Shown here: in pieces, positions 42,916 through 56,160 of the stretch | Numbering within the stretch: position 1 is the stretch's first letter | How the letters are laid out: every line of letters starts with the position of its first letter | Source: Eubacteriales bacterium | GTDB lineage: Bacteria > Bacillota > Clostridia > Oscillospirales > QAKW01 | NCBI GenBank assembly: GCA_045539335.1 | Contig: JAZQFD010000025.1 | Location: 35,545 to 99,544, forward strand | Length of the DNA: 64,000 bases | Reading direction: 5' to 3' | The notes under the pieces: generated by a model | What the model was told of the DNA's origin: nothing | What the model saw: the letters and a program-made list of their open reading frames with translations, nothing else | Database searches by the model: none | Position numbers and translations under genes: made by a program

Positions 42916-44079
42916 TTGATCTGGTCGAAAGATGAATTTTTACATATAAAACCAAATCTTGAGCCTTTGGAGCGGCGACTTTTAGAGCGTGCCTTTGACA
43001 CCCTCCAAGGCAATGTTTATGAGCCGGAAGGGTATCCTTGGAGTCCCTATCGTCTGGTAAGCCCCGGGCGGCCCCGCTTTCCCGGCGTGTGGAATTGGGA
43101 TACCGCCTTTCATTCCTATGGCATCTCCCGCTGGGATCCCACTCTTGCCAAAGAGGGGATCTTGGGCTTTTTGCAGTTTCAGGGAGCGGATGGCATCCTG
43201 CCCGATGTGATTTTTGAAAACGGGCAGGTGGTGGATCTTTATTCCAAGCCGCCGGTCTTTGCATGGGCGGCCCAAAGGGTCTATGAGCGGGCGCCGGATG
43301 AGACTTTTTTGAAGGCGGTTTATCCCAAGCTTGTTAAAAACGCCGCCTTTTGGGAGCAAAAGCGGTGCTATGAAGGGCTTTTCTATTATGATTCCGCCGA
43401 CCGAGGCGATCCCCTTTATGAAAGGCATATCCGCTATGAATCGGGCTGGGACAATTCGGTCCGCTGGGATGATTTTATTGGGGATCAATGGCCTATTGAT
43501 CTCAACTGCTTTATGGTAATGACCTATGAGGCCCTTGGCTTTATGGCCAAGGAGCTGGGAGAGTCGGATGCTTCGTGGCTTGCCAAAAAAGAGGCGCTCT
43601 GTGCCCGCATTCATGAAAAGCTATGGAACGGGGCTTATTTTGCCGATGCCAATCGCTGTACCGGCGAGAGCTCCACGGCGCTGACCCCCGCCTCCTTTAT
43701 GCCGCTTTTTGCAAAAATCGCAACTCCGGAGCAGGCGCAAAAGATGGCAGAGCTTGCCGCTGATCCCCAAAAGTTTAATGGCCATATGCCAACGGTAGCC
43801 TATGATCATCCCGCCTATGAGCTGGAGTACTGGCGGGGGCCGGTTTGGCTGAATGTGGCCTGGTTTGCGGCCAAGGGGCTGAAAAAGTATGGCTTTGCCG
43901 TTGCCGAAACCATCCGCCGCAACATTCTTGCCATGGTGGATGCAGAAAAGCGAGGCATTTTTGAAAATTATGATTCCCGCACCGGTCGGGGGTTGGATAA
44001 AAAAGATCGGATCCGTTGCAACAATTTCAGTTGGTCCGGCGTGTTCATTATAGAATTGATATTAGGATGGAGTGATTGA
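42916..44079 (+). CDS. (alpha/alpha)6 glycoside hydrolase, MGH1/trehalase-like (GH63/GH37-like)
   Basis: WNWDTAF, KPPV, ESGWDNSVRWD, YWRGPVW, FENYD, FSWS; divergent from AraC. Confidence 0.85.
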   Translation: MIWSKDEFLHIKPNLEPLERRLLERAFDTLQGNVYEPEGYPWSPYRLVSPGRPRFPGVWNWDTAFHSYGISRWDPTLAKEGILGFLQFQGADGILPDVIFENGQVVDLYSKPPVFAWAAQRVYERAPDETFLKAVYPKLVKNAAFWEQKRCYEGLFYYDSADRGDPLYERHIRYESGWDNSVRWDDFIGDQWPIDLNCFMVMTYEALGFMAKELGESDASWLAKKEALCARIHEKLWNGAYFADANRCTGESSTALTPASFMPLFAKIATPEQAQKMAELAADPQKFNGHMPTVAYDHPAYELEYWRGPVWLNVAWFAAKGLKKYGFAVAETIRRNILAMVDAEKRGIFENYDSRTGRGLDKKDRIRCNNFSWSGVFIIELILGWSD

Positions 44080-44083
44080 GGAA

Positions 44084-45466
44084 ATGAAAAAGCGGCAATG
44101 GATTTGTCTTTTGGTACTTACAGTGTTGTGTATCACCATGCTGGGCGGCTGTGCCGGCACCCAAGAAGAGGAACGGGGCGTGACTGATTCCTTTGTGAGC
44201 GAAGAAAAAGAGGAATCTAAAGAAGATACTTCTAAGGAAGAATCTCCCCAAGAGGATACGCTCAAAGAGGATGAACCCAAAGAGGAGGATCTCAAAGAGG
44301 ACACTCCCAAGGAAGAGACTCCCAAAGAGGAAGATCCTAAAGAGGAGGACCCCAAAGAGGAAGATCCGAAAGAAGAGGATCCCAAAGAGGAAACTCCCAC
44401 CGATCCCGATGAGGGAGAGGAAGACCTTCCTCCCATCACCAAGGAGGAAAGCGGCACCGCCATTACCTTCTTGATGCAGAATCTGAGAACGGCCGGCAAT
44501 CAGACCGGCTTGGATCCCAAAGAGCGGAGTAACGGAGATCTGAATCTCTATCGCCGTAAGTTCCGTTTTAAGAAGCTGGTGCAGGCTCAGGATCCCGATG
44601 TGATCTTGGCCCAAGAAGCCACCCCCGGCTGGCTGGACTTTTTTAAGACCGATCCCTATTTTTCCAAAACCTATACCATGGTCTGGACCTACCGTAAGCC
44701 CGGATCTGGTGTGGAGATGGCAACGCCGGTGCTCTATAAGACCGCCAAATATTCGGCGCTGGAATCGGGACATTTCTGGTGGAGCGACACTCCAAAATTC
44801 TCCTCGCCCACCTATGGATATACCGAGGCAGACGGGGAAGGCCATTACCGCCCCTGCTCTTGGGTGAAGCTGAAGGATAAAGAGACCGGCGGGATATTTT
44901 ACGCTTATTCCATCCATATTGATGCAGGCAACGATGTGGTGGCCTATAAATCCCTGCAGCAGCTCAACGGCATCTTCGACCGTCTGGGCAAAGACGCCTA
45001 TGCCTTTGCCGGCGGCGACTTTAACTTTGGTTTTCGGGATGACTATTATAAGATGGCGGTGGATTGGGCCTATGAGACTGACCTGCAAGAGATGGCCCAC
45101 AATATGAATGCCGACGGTCTTTGTGAGCTGGGCGGCACCAACGGTTCTCTTCATACGAAATATAATGCAGATGATAATCCCGCTACTGCCGATGTGGATG
45201 AGGGCTATTTCCAAGGGGTGTTCCCCGATCCTGACCCCGGCCGTAAGCGGCAGCTGGACCATATCTTTGCCAAGAATCACGCTAATTTAGCAGTCGATTA
45301 CTGGGGCTTTGATTATACCGATTATGAAGATTCCGCCAATCAGGTGGAAAAGGGCTATATTTCCGACCATTACGGTTTGGTCTGTAAAGTGCGGATCGAT
45401 ACCGAGGTGGATTATTCCCGCTATCAAGTAGAATATGACGGTAAGCCCGGCGCCGCAGAAAGCTGA
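44084..45466 (+). CDS. EEP family lipoprotein 1 with acidic KEEDP-repeat stalk
   Basis: Lipobox LGGC; QN, QE, H, GDFN, LDH, SDH motifs. Confidence 0.85.
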   Translation: MKKRQWICLLVLTVLCITMLGGCAGTQEEERGVTDSFVSEEKEESKEDTSKEESPQEDTLKEDEPKEEDLKEDTPKEETPKEEDPKEEDPKEEDPKEEDPKEETPTDPDEGEEDLPPITKEESGTAITFLMQNLRTAGNQTGLDPKERSNGDLNLYRRKFRFKKLVQAQDPDVILAQEATPGWLDFFKTDPYFSKTYTMVWTYRKPGSGVEMATPVLYKTAKYSALESGHFWWSDTPKFSSPTYGYTEADGEGHYRPCSWVKLKDKETGGIFYAYSIHIDAGNDVVAYKSLQQLNGIFDRLGKDAYAFAGGDFNFGFRDDYYKMAVDWAYETDLQEMAHNMNADGLCELGGTNGSLHTKYNADDNPATADVDEGYFQGVFPDPDPGRKRQLDHIFAKNHANLAVDYWGFDYTDYEDSANQVEKGYISDHYGLVCKVRIDTEVDYSRYQVEYDGKPGAAES

Positions 45467-45471
45467 TTTTT

Positions 45472-45814
45472 ATGAAAACGGAACGGACCCTTCTCTCTCA
45501 AAAAAGAGAAAATCACCCTTTTGGATAGCGGCCACTTCTGGCTGTGCAATACCCCCCATCAGGCGGCGGTTTCCTATGAGGCCAAAGGCCCTTATGGGCG
45601 GATCGTCACCTGGGCCGCCCTGCAGCATCAAAAAACCAAGCCGGTCTTTGCCTGCTATAACGCCCATGTGGATGCAGAAAAGCGAGGCGTTTTTGAAAAT
45701 TATGATTCCCGCACCGGTCGGGGGTTGGATAAAAAAGATCGGATCCGTTGCAACAATTTCAGTTGGTCCGGCGTATTCACGATAGAATTTATCTTAGGTT
45801 GGGAGGAAGAATAA
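45472..45814 (+). pseudogene. Chimeric remnant: deleted copy of the cytoplasmic EEP gene fused to a duplicated glycoside hydrolase 3' end
   Basis: 45472-45675 matches parts of 47165-47631 with an internal deletion; 45668-45800 matches 43936-44070. Confidence 0.85.
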
Positions 45815-45815
45815 C

Positions 45816-47159
45816 GTGAAATTCAATCGACTGCTTTGTTTGTTTTTAGTTTTGGTGCTGTGTCTTACAAGTCTCAGCGGCTGCAAGGGCGCTGAGGAGG
45901 AAGATTTCGGCGTTGCCGACTCCATTGTGGAGGGCGATGAGAGCACCGAGCCGAAGGAGGATAAAGATCCCGAGAACGAAAAGGACAATCCCAAGGACGA
46001 CACACCCAAGGAGGATCCCAAAGAGGAGGATCCCAAGGAGGACGAACCCAAAGAGGAGAATCCCAAAGACGAGGATCCCAAAGACGAGGATCCAAAGGAA
46101 GAGGATCCCAAAGAGGAAACACCTGCCGATCCCGATGAGGGAGAGGAAGATCTTCCTCCCATCACCAAGGAGGAAAGCGGCACTGCCATTACCTTTTTGA
46201 TGCAAAACTTGCAAACCAGCGGCACCCAAAAGGGACTGAAGGAGGAGCGTGGCGGCGGCCGCCAAAACCTGTATCACCGCAAGTATCGCTTTAAGAAAAT
46301 GGTGCTGACCCATGATCCCGATGTAATACTGGCTCAGGAAGGCACTCTCGGTTGGCATAATTTTTTTGCGACCGATCCTTATTTTTCCCAAACCTACGAT
46401 TCGGTTTATATTCTCCGCAAGCCCGGTGATATTGTGGAAGAAGGACCGCCGGTAATGTATAAAAAAAGTAGGTTTACCTTATTGAATAAGGGGCACTTTT
46501 GGTTTAGCCCCACTCCAAAAAGCTCTACGCCTACCTATGGGTATACTGCCGAGGACGAGGGTAGCCATTACCGTGTGTGCACGTGGACTCAGTTGCGGGA
46601 TAAAAAGACCGGATCGACCTTTTATGCTTATACCATTCATATGGATGCCGGCAATGACGTTGTGGCGTATAAATCCATGAATCAGTTACTGGATATTTTT
46701 GAGGATTTGGGCAAAGATGCCTATGCCTTCATCGGCGGCGATTTTAACTTCGGCTATCGGGATGTGTATTACGACGGCGCCGTAGATTTTACCAAACAAA
46801 TTGATCTGCAGGATATGGCTTTTAATATGCAGAAGGACGGACTTGCCACGGTCGGCTCGTCCAACGGGTCTCTTCGTGGCAAGGCAGATTATGAAAAGTT
46901 GGACACGGAGTTTATAGCGGATCCCAATCCCGGCAGACAGCGGCAATTGGACCATATTTTTGCGAAGCTCAATCCCCATATGGCGGTGGATCATTGGAGC
47001 CATGATTACACCATCTATGAAGACCCGGACAACGATGTGGGAAAAGGCTATATTTCCGACCATTACGGTTTGGTCTGTAAAGTGCGGATCGATACCGAGG
47101 TGGATTATTCCCGCTATCAAGTAGAATATGACGGTAAGCCCGGCGCCGCCGAAAGATGA
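45816..47159 (+). CDS. EEP family lipoprotein 2 with acidic repeat stalk
   Basis: Lipobox LSGC; QN, QE, GDFN, LDH, SDH. Confidence 0.85.
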   Translation: MKFNRLLCLFLVLVLCLTSLSGCKGAEEEDFGVADSIVEGDESTEPKEDKDPENEKDNPKDDTPKEDPKEEDPKEDEPKEENPKDEDPKDEDPKEEDPKEETPADPDEGEEDLPPITKEESGTAITFLMQNLQTSGTQKGLKEERGGGRQNLYHRKYRFKKMVLTHDPDVILAQEGTLGWHNFFATDPYFSQTYDSVYILRKPGDIVEEGPPVMYKKSRFTLLNKGHFWFSPTPKSSTPTYGYTAEDEGSHYRVCTWTQLRDKKTGSTFYAYTIHMDAGNDVVAYKSMNQLLDIFEDLGKDAYAFIGGDFNFGYRDVYYDGAVDFTKQIDLQDMAFNMQKDGLATVGSSNGSLRGKADYEKLDTEFIADPNPGRQRQLDHIFAKLNPHMAVDHWSHDYTIYEDPDNDVGKGYISDHYGLVCKVRIDTEVDYSRYQVEYDGKPGAAER

Positions 47160-47164
47160 TTTTT

Positions 47165-48094
47165 ATGAAAACAGAACTGACGATCCTTACTCAAAATTTA
47201 AGAACCAGCGGCTCTCAGATCGGCCTGCGGGATGAACGCAAAAATTCCATCAGCAATTTGTATCGTCGCTCCCGTCGCTTCAAGGCGATGGTGCAGCGGT
47301 GGGACCCCGACGTGATCCTCAGCCAAGAGGCACAACTGGGTTGGATCGGTTTTTTTGAAGAAGATCCTTATTTTACCCGGCAGTATGAGATGCTTTGGAA
47401 ATGGCGGGGCCCCGAAGGGGTGATCGGCGGCAATCAATGTTGCCCCCTCTTTTTCAAAAAAGAAAAGTTTGTTCTTTTGGAAAGCGGCCATTTCTGGCTT
47501 TGCGATACCCCCCATCAGGCGGCGGTCTCCTATGAGGCAAGAGGGCCTTATGGGCGGATCGTTACCTGGGCCACCCTGCAGGATCGAAAAACCAAGCAGG
47601 TCTTTACCTGCTATAATGCCCATGTAGATGCCGGCGGGCTGACTCATGTGAAATCCATGAAGCAGTTTGCCCAGTTATTTGCCGCTTCTCCTGAAGGGAC
47701 CTATGCCATTGTGGGCGGAGACATTAATATTCTTTACAAAGATCAGCGGTACCATGAGTGTATCTGCTGGGACGAGATGATGGATCTGCAGGATATTGCC
47801 TGCAATATGGCTGAGGCAGGACTTTGCACCTTAGGAGGCTTGAACGGCACCTCCAATCGGGCATGGCAAACCTTGGAGATCGATGAAAATGCCGGTCACG
47901 GCCAGCAAAGAGACCACTTTTTTGCTCGCCATAACCCCCGCTTAGGGGTCACCTATTACGGCGTGGATTACAATCGCTATGAAGCCCCCGAGGCGGGGGT
48001 GGAATTGGGGCATATCTCCGATCACTATGGCGTGGTTGCTAAGGTGGTTTTAGAGGGAGATGATTATTCTGCCTATCAATTTCAGCGAAAATAA
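47165..48094 (+). CDS. EEP family protein 3 (no signal peptide, probably cytoplasmic)
   Basis: LTQNL, SQE, NAH, GDIN, RDH, SDH. Confidence 0.85.
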   Translation: MKTELTILTQNLRTSGSQIGLRDERKNSISNLYRRSRRFKAMVQRWDPDVILSQEAQLGWIGFFEEDPYFTRQYEMLWKWRGPEGVIGGNQCCPLFFKKEKFVLLESGHFWLCDTPHQAAVSYEARGPYGRIVTWATLQDRKTKQVFTCYNAHVDAGGLTHVKSMKQFAQLFAASPEGTYAIVGGDINILYKDQRYHECICWDEMMDLQDIACNMAEAGLCTLGGLNGTSNRAWQTLEIDENAGHGQQRDHFFARHNPRLGVTYYGVDYNRYEAPEAGVELGHISDHYGVVAKVVLEGDDYSAYQFQRK

Positions 48095-48108
48095 AAAGGA
48101 GAAAAGCT

Positions 48109-49464
48109 ATGACGATGAAGCGTTGGCTATGCTTCTTGCTGATCGCCGTTCTTTCCTTAGGGATGCTCAGCGGCTGTAAGGGCGCCGAGGAGGAAGATTT
48201 CGGCGTTGCCGATTCCATTGTGGAGGGCGATGAGAGCACCGATCCGAAAGACGATAAAGATCCTGAGGACGAAAAGGACGATCCTAAGGACGAGGATCCC
48301 AAAGAGGAGGATCCCAAGGACGAGGATCCGAAGGAGGACGAACCCAAAGAGGAGAATCCCAAAGACGAGGATCCCAAAGACGAGGATCCAAAGGAAGAGG
48401 ATCCCAAAGAGGAAACGCCTGCCGATCCCAATGAGGGAGAGGAAGACCTTCCTCCCATCACCAAGGAAAATAGCGGCGTTGCCATAACCATCCTGACCCA
48501 GAACCTGCGCACCTCCGGCACTCAGCGAGGGGAAAAGGCGGAGCGGGGGAGCGGCGACCATAACCTGTGGCATCGGTTCCGCCGCTTAAAGAGTCAGGTG
48601 CGGGAGTGGGAGCCCGATGTGATCATGACCCAAGAGGGCATGAGCGGGCATGTGAATCTCTTGACCACCGATCCTTATTTTGATCAGGTCTATGATATTG
48701 TGTGGAAAAATCGAGGCCCCAATAATGACGACAGCATTGTGGACGATCAGTCGGTGCCGGTGCTGTATAAGACCTCAAGATTTACTTTGGTAGACAGCGG
48801 CCATTTCTGGCTCAGCGAGACTCCCCATATTCCCTCCATCGGCTATGGTGCCACTGAGGAATATGCCCGTATCACCACTTGGGTGCGGTTAAAGGACAAG
48901 GCCACCGGCGTGGAGCTTTATGCCTATTCTGCCCATTTTGCCGTTACCGAGACCTTCCATATTCGGGCGATGGAGCAGTTTATGAACGCCTTTGATAAAT
49001 TGAAGAAGGGCACCTATGCCTTTGTGGCAGGCGATTTCAACATCCGCTATAAGAGCTTTGAATATGATTCTATGCTGGAATGGGATCGCATTATCGACCT
49101 GAAGGATATGGCCCTTAATATGCAGGCCGATGGTCTGGCTCAAGTAGAGGGCGATACCGGAACCGTTCATTCCCGCTACGATAAAAACGGCAAAGTGCAG
49201 GATGAGTGGGCCGAGGGCGAGCCCGATGTGGAGCCCTTTGGGGATCTTCGCCAGATCGACCATATTTTTGCCAAGCCCGATCCCCATATGGCGGTGGATT
49301 ATTGGAGTGTTATTTATAAGCAATATGGCTATGATGAGGGCGAAGAGTTTGTGAAAAACGGCTACCTTTCCGACCACTACGGCGTGGTGTGTAAGGTGCG
49401 GGTGGATACGCAGGTGGATTACTCCCGCTACCAGCATCAAAACCCCGATTCTCCGGCGTTGTAA
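48109..49464 (+). CDS. EEP family lipoprotein 4 with acidic repeat stalk
   Basis: Lipobox LSGC; QN, QE, GDFN, IDH, SDH. Confidence 0.85.
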   Translation: MTMKRWLCFLLIAVLSLGMLSGCKGAEEEDFGVADSIVEGDESTDPKDDKDPEDEKDDPKDEDPKEEDPKDEDPKEDEPKEENPKDEDPKDEDPKEEDPKEETPADPNEGEEDLPPITKENSGVAITILTQNLRTSGTQRGEKAERGSGDHNLWHRFRRLKSQVREWEPDVIMTQEGMSGHVNLLTTDPYFDQVYDIVWKNRGPNNDDSIVDDQSVPVLYKTSRFTLVDSGHFWLSETPHIPSIGYGATEEYARITTWVRLKDKATGVELYAYSAHFAVTETFHIRAMEQFMNAFDKLKKGTYAFVAGDFNIRYKSFEYDSMLEWDRIIDLKDMALNMQADGLAQVEGDTGTVHSRYDKNGKVQDEWAEGEPDVEPFGDLRQIDHIFAKPDPHMAVDYWSVIYKQYGYDEGEEFVKNGYLSDHYGVVCKVRVDTQVDYSRYQHQNPDSPAL

Positions 49465-49543
49465 AGACTCTTCGCTTGGACTCTTAAGCGGATGATTCCC
49501 GCTATTAGCATCAATATCGTGATTAAAAAACAGCGTGAGGATA

Positions 49544-49747
49544 GGCGTTGTACCCGTAAGGATACAACGCCAGTTTTATTCGCCTTGCGGCGAGTTATAT
49601 TGCTTCGCAGTTATATTCGGCTAAAAGCCGAGTGTTATTCGCTTTGCGAGTTTTATAGGCGAATAAAATATCACTAAAACCATTAGGTTTTAATATTACT
49701 TTTGATTTATCAAAAATATCACTGTGAGACTTGTCTCACAATAGCAC
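49544..49747. repeat. Multi-hairpin heptamer element, copy C
   Basis: Same order of parts as copy A; long stem TTTTATTCGCCT 49574-49585 / AGGCGAATAAAA 49657-49668; TGTGAGAC..GTCTCACA 49723-49740. Confidence 0.85.
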
Positions 49748-49777
49748 TATTAAAAAGTATTTTATTTTGAGGACAGT

Positions 49778-49813
49778 AAAAAAGCTGTGTAGAAATTTTC
49801 TACACAGCTTTTA
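49778..49813. terminator. Bidirectional terminator hairpin
   Basis: AAAAAGCTGTGTAGAA..TTCTACACAGCTTTT. Confidence 0.7.
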
Positions 49814-49910
49814 ATTATGTCTCATACCGTAACAAGCAGGGAAAATGTACGGCACATTTCCCAATCTTTAGGAGAACCTAAAACCCTTTTCTAAACAAAT
49901 ATCATCTATT

Positions 49911-49927
49911 CGATAAATTGGAATTTG
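49911..49927. repeat. 17-bp site CGATAAATTGGAATTTG (inverted partner of 50348-50364)
   Basis: Its reverse complement is 15/17 identical to 50348-50364; lies 5 bp beyond the GNAT stop. Confidence 0.7.
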
Positions 49928-49932
49928 CTGAT

Positions 49933-50335
49933 TTATGTCCATAGCGATGTTGTAAACATTGGCGAAGCATCTTTGCTTTTTTCAAAGCCACACGCTTCGT
50001 AAAACTGTAACTCATCATCATAAGCGACAACTACAATACGCATATAATCTTTATACTTTTCTTTTACCATACTTACAAGAGTTCTTCCGATCGTTTTGCC
50101 GTGATAATCAGGATCAACAAGAAGATAATGAACATGCATTCATTATTCCATCATCCATAACACATACCATTCCAACAAGTTTACTCCTATCCCAAGCAGA
50201 GTAAACCGTATTAAAATTTTTCATTGCAACCACAAGCTTATCGGGAAAATGTCCCGACGACCATTCAACAGATAAAAACAGTCTTTCTAAATCTTCTTGC
50301 TCAAAATTATGAATGTCTTTATATTCAATGTTCAT
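49933..50335 (-). pseudogene. GNAT family N-acetyltransferase, frameshifted
   Basis: ORFs 50114-50335 and 49933-50139 join as ..DDGIMNA(Y)VHYLLVDPDYHGKTIG..FYEACGF if 2 nt are restored near 50135; AT-rich. Confidence 0.8.
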
Positions 50336-50347
50336 ATTTTACCTCGT

Positions 50348-50364
50348 CAAATTCTTATTTATCG
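50348..50364. repeat. 17-bp site CAAATTCTTATTTATCG (inverted partner of 49911-49927)
   Basis: Lies between an extended -10 (TGCTATAAT, minus strand) and the GAGGT RBS of the GNAT gene. Confidence 0.7.
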
Positions 50365-50588
50365 GTTCGTTATATTATAGCACGACTTGACTAACAAAGA
50401 AAGGAAATATTAAAAACACCCATAGTTTTTTAAAAAACTATGGGTGTTTTCGTATTTTGTTGTACTGTCCCTTACTGTACGACTCTTACCCCTTGCGCTG
50501 TTTTTTTACCCTCCTCAACATATTTAACATACACATTATCGCCTCCATGCAAACAAAGGGCATTACCTAATCCAAAGCGCTGGTCGCC

Positions 50589-50735
50589 AATACAAATGAA
50601 TTGTATCGATCAAAACAAAATTCCGCTCTTTAATACAAATGAATTGTATCGATCAAAGCAAAGCTTTGTTCTTAATACAAATGAATTGTGTCGATCAAAA
50701 CAAAACTCTGCTCTTTAATACAAATGATTTGTGTC
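50589..50735. repeat. Tandem array of 4 palindromic ATACAA-N5-TTGTRT sites, 42-43 bp period
   Basis: AATACAAATGAWTTGTRTC at 50589, 50632, 50674, 50717 with related spacers. Confidence 0.9.
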
Positions 50736-50741
50736 GGAGGA

Positions 50742-50792: not shown

Positions 50793-51098
50793 ATGGCGGC
50801 AAAGATCTTCAGCAAACGGTTAAAACAATTGCGGCTTGAAAAAGGCGTCACTCAAAAACAAATGAGCCAAGACCTGCGGATGGCAGACAGCTATATTTAT
50901 AATATTGAAGCAGAATACGCCTATCCCTCCATGACTCAGTTTTTTGCCATTTGCGAGTATCTGGACATCTTGCCCTCCGATTTTTTGCAATTTGAGCCGG
51001 AGACTTCGGCTAAAGAGGATGAATTATTGGATGCCGTGAAGGGTTTTAGCAATGAGAAGATGGATCGGCTGATCTGCATAGCAAAGGAGTTGCAATAA
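50793..51098 (+). CDS. XRE family helix-turn-helix regulator
   Basis: RLKQLRLEKGVTQKQMS..YIYNIE..PS..ICEYL. Confidence 0.88.
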   Translation: MAAKIFSKRLKQLRLEKGVTQKQMSQDLRMADSYIYNIEAEYAYPSMTQFFAICEYLDILPSDFLQFEPETSAKEDELLDAVKGFSNEKMDRLICIAKELQ

Positions 51099-54880: not shown

Positions 54881-55070
54881 AATGCAATTCATTTGTATTT
54901 AAATGCGCAACAGAGCGGCGGTAATACAATTCATTTGTATTGGTGGCCGCAAACGGAGGTTTTCGATACAAATGAATTGTATCGAAGACATGAAAGGGAG
55001 GGGGGCAATACAAATGAATTGTATTGACGGATTACAATTGTGGGAGGGGTTGATACAAATAAATTGTATT
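54881..55070. repeat. Array of five 19-bp palindromic repeats with unique 23-26 nt spacers
   Basis: Repeats at 54881, 54923 (reverse orientation) and 54965, 55007, 55052 (forward); same core as the 50589 array. Confidence 0.9.
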
Positions 55071-55102
55071 GCGGGCAAAAAAAGAGAACCGCTAAGCGGT
55101 TC

Positions 55103-55273
55103 TCATAGGATTTCATAGGTAAAGTTTTCATAATGCAGGCGGGTGCCGATATCACAGCCCTCGGGGAGCAAGGCCATGGCAATAAAGAGATCTTCGGAGC
55201 ATTGCCCGCTCTCATCCCGCAAATACGCATAATCCCCTTCAATTTTGATTAAAATATAGTTTTTTTCAAACAT
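55103..55273 (-). CDS. Small hypothetical protein (DUF3006-like pattern)
   Basis: IEGDYAYL..IAMALLPEG..G..L; GGGAGG RBS; terminator hairpin ~55077-55104. Confidence 0.7.
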   Translation of the reverse strand: MFEKNYILIKIEGDYAYLRDESGQCSEDLFIAMALLPEGCDIGTRLHYENFTYEIL

Positions 55274-55347: not shown

Positions 55348-55836
55348 TTAGGTTTGGTCAATTCTTATATCAATAGACTTAAATTCATGTACTTTTGCGT
55401 ACGCATAACCATCTGATTTTTTTATATAATCAAAAAAATTTTCGTCAGAATCATCGCTCCACAAAGTATCTTGTAAAAAACGATTTTCTTCATCAGGAGA
55501 GAACATTATACTTACTCGTAGCTGAAAATATTCATCTTCCCCATCAGGATATTGTCTTACTAAGTCATAGTAAAACAAATCTTTCCCCGTAAAATCATAA
55601 ACACCATACTCGCTTAATAAAAGGTCTTCTTCAATAGGGGTTTTACACATTTCTTCGAATACATTTATGATTTCGTCCAACGATTTATTAATTGAAATAT
55701 TACTCTTCAAATACTCTAATAATTCCATATTATTTACCTCGTGATTTACATTTAAACTTGTATTTTCATTTAGGTTACAAGCGGAAAGTCCAAAAATCAG
55801 TATTAAACACAAGAGAAAAACTGCAATTTTCTTCAT
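55348..55836 (-). CDS. Hypothetical lipoprotein, AT-rich
   Basis: MKK..LSAC lipobox; visibly lower GC than neighbours. Confidence 0.72.
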   Translation of the reverse strand: MKKIAVFLLCLILIFGLSACNLNENTSLNVNHEVNNMELLEYLKSNISINKSLDEIINVFEEMCKTPIEEDLLLSEYGVYDFTGKDLFYYDLVRQYPDGEDEYFQLRVSIMFSPDEENRFLQDTLWSDDSDENFFDYIKKSDGYAYAKVHEFKSIDIRIDQT

Positions 55837-56049: not shown

Positions 56050-56084
56050 AAAAAAAGAACGAAGCATTCGCTTCGTTCTTTTTT
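56050..56084 (-). terminator. tRNA terminator
   Basis: AAAAAAGAACGAAGC-ATTC-GCTTCGTTCTTTTTT. Confidence 0.8.
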
Positions 56085-56160
56085 GGTGGAGACAACTGGA
56101 ATTGAACCAGTGACCCCTTGCATGTCAAGCAAGTACTCTAACCAGCTGAGCTATGCCTCC
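56084..56160 (-). tRNA. tRNA-Val(GAC)
   Basis: GGAGGCATAGCTCAGCTGGTTAGAGTA-CTTGC-TTGACAT-GCAAG..GGTTCAATTCC..CTCCACCA; TTGACA-17-TAGAAT promoter upstream. Confidence 0.97.

Follow-up and report, generated by a model that had tools for sequence, protein, structure and literature searches.

A 943-bp non-autonomous mini-element was found at positions 49544-50486 of the window, the whole stretch of 64,000 nucleotides that was analysed. It is probable that this element, which splits a host terminator, carries a one-gene slot with a promoter outside it, with a borrowed serine recombinase inserting the element and a second, site-specific recombinase exchanging the genes of the slot. The element has a defined anatomy, its payloads are diverse, the same cassettes recur in different slots, and its outer ends are common to elements that carry a recombinase. 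It is likely to be a mobile, integron-like gene-delivery unit that does without IntI, attC and a canonical dif. The wider proposal, that gut Clostridia have built the equivalent of a mobile integron from two unrelated recombination systems and thus hold a third class of cassette system beside integrons and pdif modules, is given even chances. Bacillota have been thought to be without working integrons, yet gut Clostridia hold many small AT-rich accessory genes. The element offers an anatomy for the spread of such genes, with fixed cassette edges, a promoter, outer ends and a target.

The window belongs to a 1.87-Mb Clostridia genome that is 94% complete (G000); fetched loci are numbered with L and contigs with C. 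The features of the element and its surroundings are as follows, with the strand given where one was assigned.

48109..49464, plus strand: host EEP-family (PF03372) lipoprotein-like gene, outside the element, its own terminator split
49525..49541: host terminator half 1 (A-tract and stem arm), 88% complementary to 50491-50506 and 60 bp past the stop of the host EEP-family gene
49542..49543: flanking dinucleotide TA, a putative 2-bp recombination core, with the same bases at 50487-50488
49544..50486, minus strand: whole non-autonomous mini-element, 943 bp (945 bp with one copy of the flanking dinucleotide), in the order outer end, promoter segment, cassette slot, 3' segment, outer end
49544..49571: 3'-side outer end, an imperfect inverted copy (~24 bp) of the other end and a putative attL/attR half-site
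49571..49760: hairpin cluster, present without a slot at 12 further places of G000, with a weak likeness to Rfam Gut-1
49780..49812, minus strand: 16-bp hairpin and then a T-run, found as an inverted-repeat pair, the predicted terminator of the cassette transcript
49911..49927: inner arm, 3' edge of the cassette
49933..50335, minus strand: cassette gene, a GNAT acetyltransferase by Pfam, frameshifted near 50135
50341..50345, minus strand: ribosome-binding site, which travels with the cassette and is common to the L060 copy
50348..50364: inner arm, 5' edge of the cassette, beside the predicted transcription start
50374..50382, minus strand: predicted extended -10 of the platform, facing into the slot and conserved across the fetched loci
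50413..50450: perfect 19-bp hairpin of the promoter-side segment, a predicted two-way terminator insulating the slot
50463..50486: promoter-side outer end, a putative attL/attR half-site, near-identical to the end in L220
50487..50488: flanking dinucleotide TA, copy 2
50489..50506: host terminator half 2 (stem arm and T-tract)

The original prediction had described an AT-rich GNAT gene precisely bracketed by two inverted 17-bp sites. An inverted-repeat search confirmed the arms as inverted copies (15/17), and their placement also held: one arm lies 5 bp beyond the stop codon (49933-49935), while the other sits between the ribosome-binding site and an extended -10 outside the slot. The gene between them is, nevertheless, frameshifted, and the conserved unit is larger than the bracketed gene, extending from 49544 to 50486. 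The original prediction included neither the frameshift nor the outer ends, which mark the whole platform as a mobile element. The limits of the element are the points where the alignment of three G000 copies breaks. Contigs from four gut metagenome runs start their cover in the 49504-49554 bin and end it in the 50473-50523 bin; as the host flanks are left uncovered, no empty terminator allele was seen in them.

The 3' segment has a folding z of -9.95, and its hairpin cluster scored 41.6 bits against Rfam Gut-1, which is under the gathering score of 50. At the 49780..49812 hairpin, the terminator scan reported the plus strand only. The platform promoter is missing from a consensus promoter scan because its -35 is weak, and the conservation of its -10 is to be read with the caveat that the -10 hexamer was itself part of the pattern used to fetch the loci.

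In the window assembly, the GNAT reading frame is broken into two pieces of 73 and 67 aa. It is short by two bases near 50135 when compared with an intact 134-aa copy in L060 (84% DNA identity), where the same cassette recurs as the first of three. The two extra bases are present in contigs of all four metagenome runs; the frameshift may be either a true lesion or an error of the assembly. The 11 GNAT homologs at a greater distance (53-76% identity), as read by eye, stand in ordinary operons, and arms are absent from all of them. The presence of arms thus follows the mobile lineage rather than the protein family.

It had also been proposed that the arms are the sites of a gene-cassette capture system, and that they should be sought at other ORF boundaries in the genome and its relatives. 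This reading was upheld, as the arms border single variable ORFs in G000 and in many relatives while the promoter stays outside with the platform. At two mismatches or fewer, six matches to the left arm and five to the right arm were found in G000, all but one of them at the edges of AT-rich ORFs. A matrix made from 12 sites gave 14 sites at or above 19 bits in G000, against 1, 0 and 1 in three shuffles, the comparison being partly circular as the 12 seed sites are among the 14. Two counts are free of such circularity. An arm follows the promoter segment at 25 of 25 distinct sites in loci fetched without the arm pattern, and at the 48 distinct sites located through the 3' segment, that segment is preceded by an arm every time.

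Arms border AT-rich ORFs on contigs C27, C32, C7, C3 and C40 of G000 as well. The loci on C27 and C32 have the same DNA beyond their arms as the window does, namely a promoter-side segment of ~140 bp and a 3' segment of ~370 bp, and the three platform copies of the genome (C25, C27, C32) carry unrelated payloads, with that on C32 being a cassette array with a 41-bp junction. The arm-bounded cassettes at C3:58478-58880 and C7:138867-139427 occupy other small platforms located behind tRNA genes.

The relatives share both platform segments and not the gene between them, with matches in 22 of 31 genomes. In a species-level genome collection, at least 120 matches to the promoter with the arm were obtained, and the 80 records listed are titled as Clostridia MAGs, many of them from ruminant gut. 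When these 80 loci were fetched with their flanks, the promoter segment was present in 74 and a second arm in 46 distinct ones, 30 of which reach the 3' segment; many of the sequences are MAG contigs that come from a small number of ruminant studies, and they are not independent. Many loci break off with their contig shortly after entering the slot, as is expected where a repeat meets variable DNA. The 46th two-arm slot (L113) holds a 180-bp insert. A cleanly empty slot was not seen among the loci; L082 looks emptied, but it has a different 3' flank. The cassettes appear to be promoterless and to be served by the predicted promoter outside, since their ORFs begin within ~50 bp of the arm and the extended -10 is conserved.

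Searches of mobile DNA collections returned no match for two arm or junction patterns in viral contigs, for the promoter segment in plasmids or for the 3' segment in phages. A strict pattern of the 41-bp junction matched one of 301 genomes of the class, a count that reflects a pattern so strict as to miss the junction of G000 itself.

The payloads are of many kinds. A script grouped 75 arm-bounded, cassette-like ORFs into 55 clusters, in a set that contains some duplicates as well as at least one gene, DctM in L092, that probably belongs to the host. Out of 58 reference payloads, 47 were scanned, with a Pfam match in 28 and none in 19. The families include GNATs, methyltransferases, GrpB, nucleotidyltransferases, kinase-like proteins, hydrolases and others, many of them unrelated small-enzyme or membrane families, and no recombinase was found among the 47.

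The same cassettes also turn up in different slots. A GNAT cassette that follows the platform arm in L040 and L051 is found in L184 after a fused 3'-type arm. Similarly, a membrane-protein cassette occurs on C40 of G000, in L003, L045 and L097, and as the second cassette of L063, with four different neighbours. In such comparisons, the cassette-specific sequence runs from within the inner five bases of one arm, that on the promoter side, to within the inner part of the other. Within arrays, two types of junction were observed: a 41-bp linker made of arm, 7 bp and arm (7 cases), and a single fused arm (L036, L060, L063, L081, L110), in which the left part of the 3' arm runs directly into the next ribosome-binding site. 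Both types fit a crossover in the five bases common to both arm types in direct register. The 7 bp between the two arms of the 41-bp junction had been considered as the crossover site, an idea that was dropped, as the comparison of junctions and cassettes places the crossover inside the arm.

On these grounds, a cassette would consist of a ribosome-binding site, an ORF and its stop codon with a few arm bases at each edge, and it would be exchanged or added at the arm dyad by a crossover in those five shared bases. Repeated additions would then yield arrays joined by one fused arm or by the 41-bp arm-7-arm linker.

Payloads could also be swapped by homologous recombination in the 140-bp and 370-bp segments, with no inner enzyme involved and with arms that are relics or protein-binding operators. 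The conserved segments are indeed long and multi-copy, the slot has no linked recombinase, and the promoter-side arm sits at an operator-like position. This explanation is, however, unlikely: the same cassettes are found in platforms that have the arm alone in common (C7 of G000, behind a tRNA gene, C40 of G000, L019 and L033), the array junctions at the arm are standard (7 of the 41-bp type and fused arms in five loci), and the variable DNA starts within a few bases of the arm.

The inverted orientation of the arms raises the further idea, part of the original prediction, that they form an inversion system, an on/off switch for the gene. The altered cores at some 3' sites lend it a little colour. 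The central core is canonical at 38 of 48 3' sites; at four of the 48 it matches the promoter-side core type when read in reverse complement, and in L086 the usual 3' core is flipped, which suggests that recombination between inverted arms may occasionally take place. Yet 45 of the 46 distinct two-arm slots hold sense-strand ORFs (in a scan that took sense-strand ORFs only), and contigs of the four metagenome runs, where inverted or empty alleles had been suggested to be sought, had no opposite-strand joint at the arms among those listed. A switch is thus highly improbable. The same contigs did contain nine joints that connect both arms with the GNAT gene missing and the intervening sequence not given; we read them as other payloads rather than empty slots.

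Which enzyme works on the inner arms of the exchangeable slot is a separate matter. Tyrosine recombinases typically act on short dyads with a small variable core. As the inner site is a short dyad around a variable core of 4-6 bp, such an enzyme acting in trans is favoured, with a likelihood put a little below one half. The expectation that the arms co-occur with a tyrosine recombinase did not hold, for in the 80 loci, searched with five query proteins of which three were tyrosine recombinases, no recombinase lies consistently beside the slot. The exceptions were an integrase fragment beyond the element (L112), a fragment ~10 kb away (L073) and an unrelated serine recombinase just upstream (L047). 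In this last locus (L047:8199-10400), 30 bp separate a phage-type large serine recombinase gene from the slot promoter that follows it, and the shell of the mini-element is lacking; the protein was rejected as the inner enzyme, being found at one of 80 loci and belonging to a different clade.

G000 itself has two Xer-like genes and one phage-type integrase in phage-like surroundings, and none of them is beside a slot. The arms may hence be imagined as dif-like sites of host XerC/XerD-like recombinases, as in the pdif modules of Acinetobacter plasmids. Sites that alternate in orientation around single-gene modules are described for pdif in the consulted part of PMC9771954, and the slot arms do likewise; the only other resident tyrosine recombinase is the one in phage-like surroundings; and the left arm resembles, as a likeness only, the left arm of difSL as given in the consulted part of PMC5357621. 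Against this, the inner bases of the arm differ from the dif sequence in PMC3025954, no arm lies beside either Xer-like gene, and in the cassette-side halves conservation falls far short of what a Xer arm would require. Host Xer proteins may be the ones at work, but this is regarded as unlikely. A search for the host dif in G000 gave many weak candidates only, among which C38:1871 is the best-looking chromosomal one.

Around the inner slot lies the outer shell. The conservation of the promoter segment stops sharply at a motif of ~24 bp, outside which come TA and then an A-tract with a short, locus-specific stem arm. At the far end, an inverted copy of the motif is followed by TA, the complementary stem arm and a T-tract. 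As read by eye, the same dinucleotide is present on both sides in all 24 elements with readable ends (23 with TA and one, L202, with TT) with no longer duplication, and this count includes 8 of 8 elements fetched without any end pattern. Complementary terminator halves form the flanks of 20 of the 24, both counts having been made by eye with no shuffled control; in the other four (L046, L170, L179, L185) the flanks are non-complementary. Of 251 genomes of the order, 32 contain the end motif, while the control gave two matches; in viral contigs it was found once, probably by chance.

The same ends also enclose cargo that has no inner arms (C7 of G000, L176, L202, L219, L230) or no cargo at all (L186, L227), and the slot is thus one of several loads. 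The C7 case (C7:7402-8698) is an HTH-membrane gene with its own promoter and without inner arms, a homolog of which is the last gene of the C32 array. In L230 (G456:C58), the ends surround a RAYT-like Y1 transposase ORF with REP-like palindromes of its own, along with HTH and secreted-protein genes, the families being assigned by reading. Membership of the element in the REP/RAYT group found no support, as there is no PF01797 match in G000 and the RAYT-like ORF of L230 is cargo among other genes.

The enzyme that acts on these ends is suggested by their neighbourhood. Ends related to the 3'-side end (49544..49571) were found behind DUF4368 serine recombinase genes. In L220, a gene with Resolvase, Recombinase, Zn-ribbon and DUF4368 domains is followed, 51 bp after its stop codon, by a near-identical copy of the promoter-side end; this closest recombinase match is interrupted at its N-terminus. 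A matching C-terminal piece of the recombinase is found in L215 at the same position relative to the end, as judged by eye. Moreover, complete elements are present in L281 (~17 kb) and L283 (~9.5 kb), each with a recombinase, inverted ends of an analogous kind, the same dinucleotide on both sides and a terminator that is split. The cargo of L283 (G473:C26) looks, by reading, like a type III restriction-modification pair. At several homologous recombinase loci, an analogous end comes 30-60 bp after the stop codon, and in a set of 30 such loci, only the query (L220/L248) and L249 have a similar-scoring end (31.2 and 9.1, with the rest at or below 1.4).

DUF4368 marks a clade of multi-targeting enzymes, TndX-like ones among them, whose cores are 2 bp long and whose targets have A/T-rich flanks (PMC10083194, consulted in part). 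A 2-bp core that is the same on both sides and either TA or TT is more in keeping with a serine recombinase than with a TA-duplicating transposase. In the mini-element itself, the GNAT ORF is the only one inside, and both a recombinase and a relaxase of its own are absent; lacking a recombinase, the element can only be a helper-dependent derivative. It is a well-supported inference from these sequences that a serine recombinase supplied in trans drives the outer mechanism.

The cognate enzyme was found neither in G000, where the best match has 32% identity, nor in the 29 other genomes of the genus (E <= 1e-170), and so the helper would have to be a visitor. Close homologs of the recombinase are present in 2 of 49 genomes of the host family and in 2 of 201 of the family of G510, while viral contigs gave no match to the serine recombinase.

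At first, the outer ends were taken for the terminal inverted repeats of a DDE transposon. The element would then be a MITE moved by a TA-duplicating transposase of the IS630-like kind, and inverted ends of ~24 bp, TA on both sides, the lack of an enzyme inside and the many cargo-less copies would all agree with it. This was dropped once the same end was found directly following a serine recombinase gene. The dinucleotide can, in addition, be TT (L202), and in the 28 metagenome and ~50 genome loci that were read by eye, no DDE transposase ORF was recognised between ends of this kind, making a MITE very unlikely.

With a serine recombinase as the preferred outer enzyme, a large TndX/TnpX-like protein with DUF4368 would recombine the outer ends, once joined, with the two bases that form the tip of a terminator hairpin. 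Such an insertion would leave half of the terminator and the same dinucleotide on each side, and the hairpins of the element itself would restore termination. By landing at terminators, the element could spread without disrupting host genes.

The slot-less hairpin clusters of G000, at least 12 in number, have other types of ends (C4:14794-15120, C37:12231-12538, C28:5504, C23:11634, C31:1968 and others). The end of the C28 and C23 clusters resembles an end behind the serine recombinase in L259. Judging from these ends, several recombinase subfamilies may each have mini-elements of their own.

Among known systems, integrons are similar in many respects. The sources on integrons and pdif modules were consulted in part. 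As in the slot, an outside promoter serves promoterless one-gene cassettes, conserved 5' and 3' segments, tandem arrays and a cargo of GNATs, nucleotidyltransferases and unknown ORFs are described, and in MITE-flanked class 1 integrons the platform likewise lies in an enzyme-less mobile shell (PMC4889954, PMC11389934, PMC9771954). However, the slot differs from integrons in that it has no intI beside it, each gene has short sequence-conserved dyads on both sides instead of long, variable attC hairpins, and most slots hold one gene. The junctions, judged from their sequence, are the 41-bp linker or a fused arm of fixed sequence and not attC sites. For Firmicutes/Bacillota, the part of PMC4889954 consulted reports no complete integron, along with CALIN and occasional integrons.

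The pdif modules are also close, with single genes between inversely oriented short sites and an enzyme in trans (PMC9771954, PMC5357621). The arm, in contrast, is unlike the canonical dif at its inner positions, and the slots have a fixed promoter platform and chromosomal loci.

The outer shell is, by its sequence features, a helper-dependent relative of Tn4451-type elements. The TnpX/TndX elements (Tn4451/Tn4453) have DUF4368 enzymes with low target specificity, a 2-bp core and A/T-rich flanks in the consulted parts of PMC5704250 and PMC10083194, and related ends are found here just behind a DUF4368 recombinase gene. Unlike them, the mini-element is below 1 kb, has no recombinase or relaxase and carries an inner cassette system; its targeting of terminator tips is a trait that those same parts of the two papers do not mention.

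IME_Rho_tet of gut Clostridia is another relative in layout. The part of PMC12904643 consulted describes 21-bp inverted ends ascribed to a serine recombinase, enzyme-less partial forms and a 3' boundary 81-90 bp behind the stop codon of the recombinase. That element differs in being ~10 kb long with a relaxase and tet genes, and no inner slot is described in this part of the paper. The word terminator is absent from the main text as consulted, and the likeness drawn here concerns layout alone and not the sequence of the ends.

A literature search, thin on subscription journals and supplements, found no published description of either tier. The novelty rests on the inner cassette system, as the outer shell alone would be a variant of known elements. 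For catalogues of mobile cargo in the gut microbiomes of animals, the arms provide a sequence tag. Two questions have also become testable, namely the nature of the inner-arm enzyme and the possible role of DUF4368 serine recombinases in moving enzyme-less passengers into terminators.

Some other features of the window were observed. Four tandem EEP-family genes occupy 44072-49464, three of which have a lipoprotein-like start and an acidic low-complexity linker with EEDPK-type repeats. A second AT-rich single gene, encoding 162 aa with no Pfam match, is present at 55348-55836; a repeat-like segment separates it from tRNA-Val (56084-56160), and no arm scored at this place. Outside the element, at 50589-50736, a 43-bp unit with an internal dyad is repeated 3.5 times in tandem (86% matches), between the element and a small HTH gene (50793-51098). 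The stretch near 54900-55240 seems similar to these repeats, as judged from the translations of spurious ORFs only.
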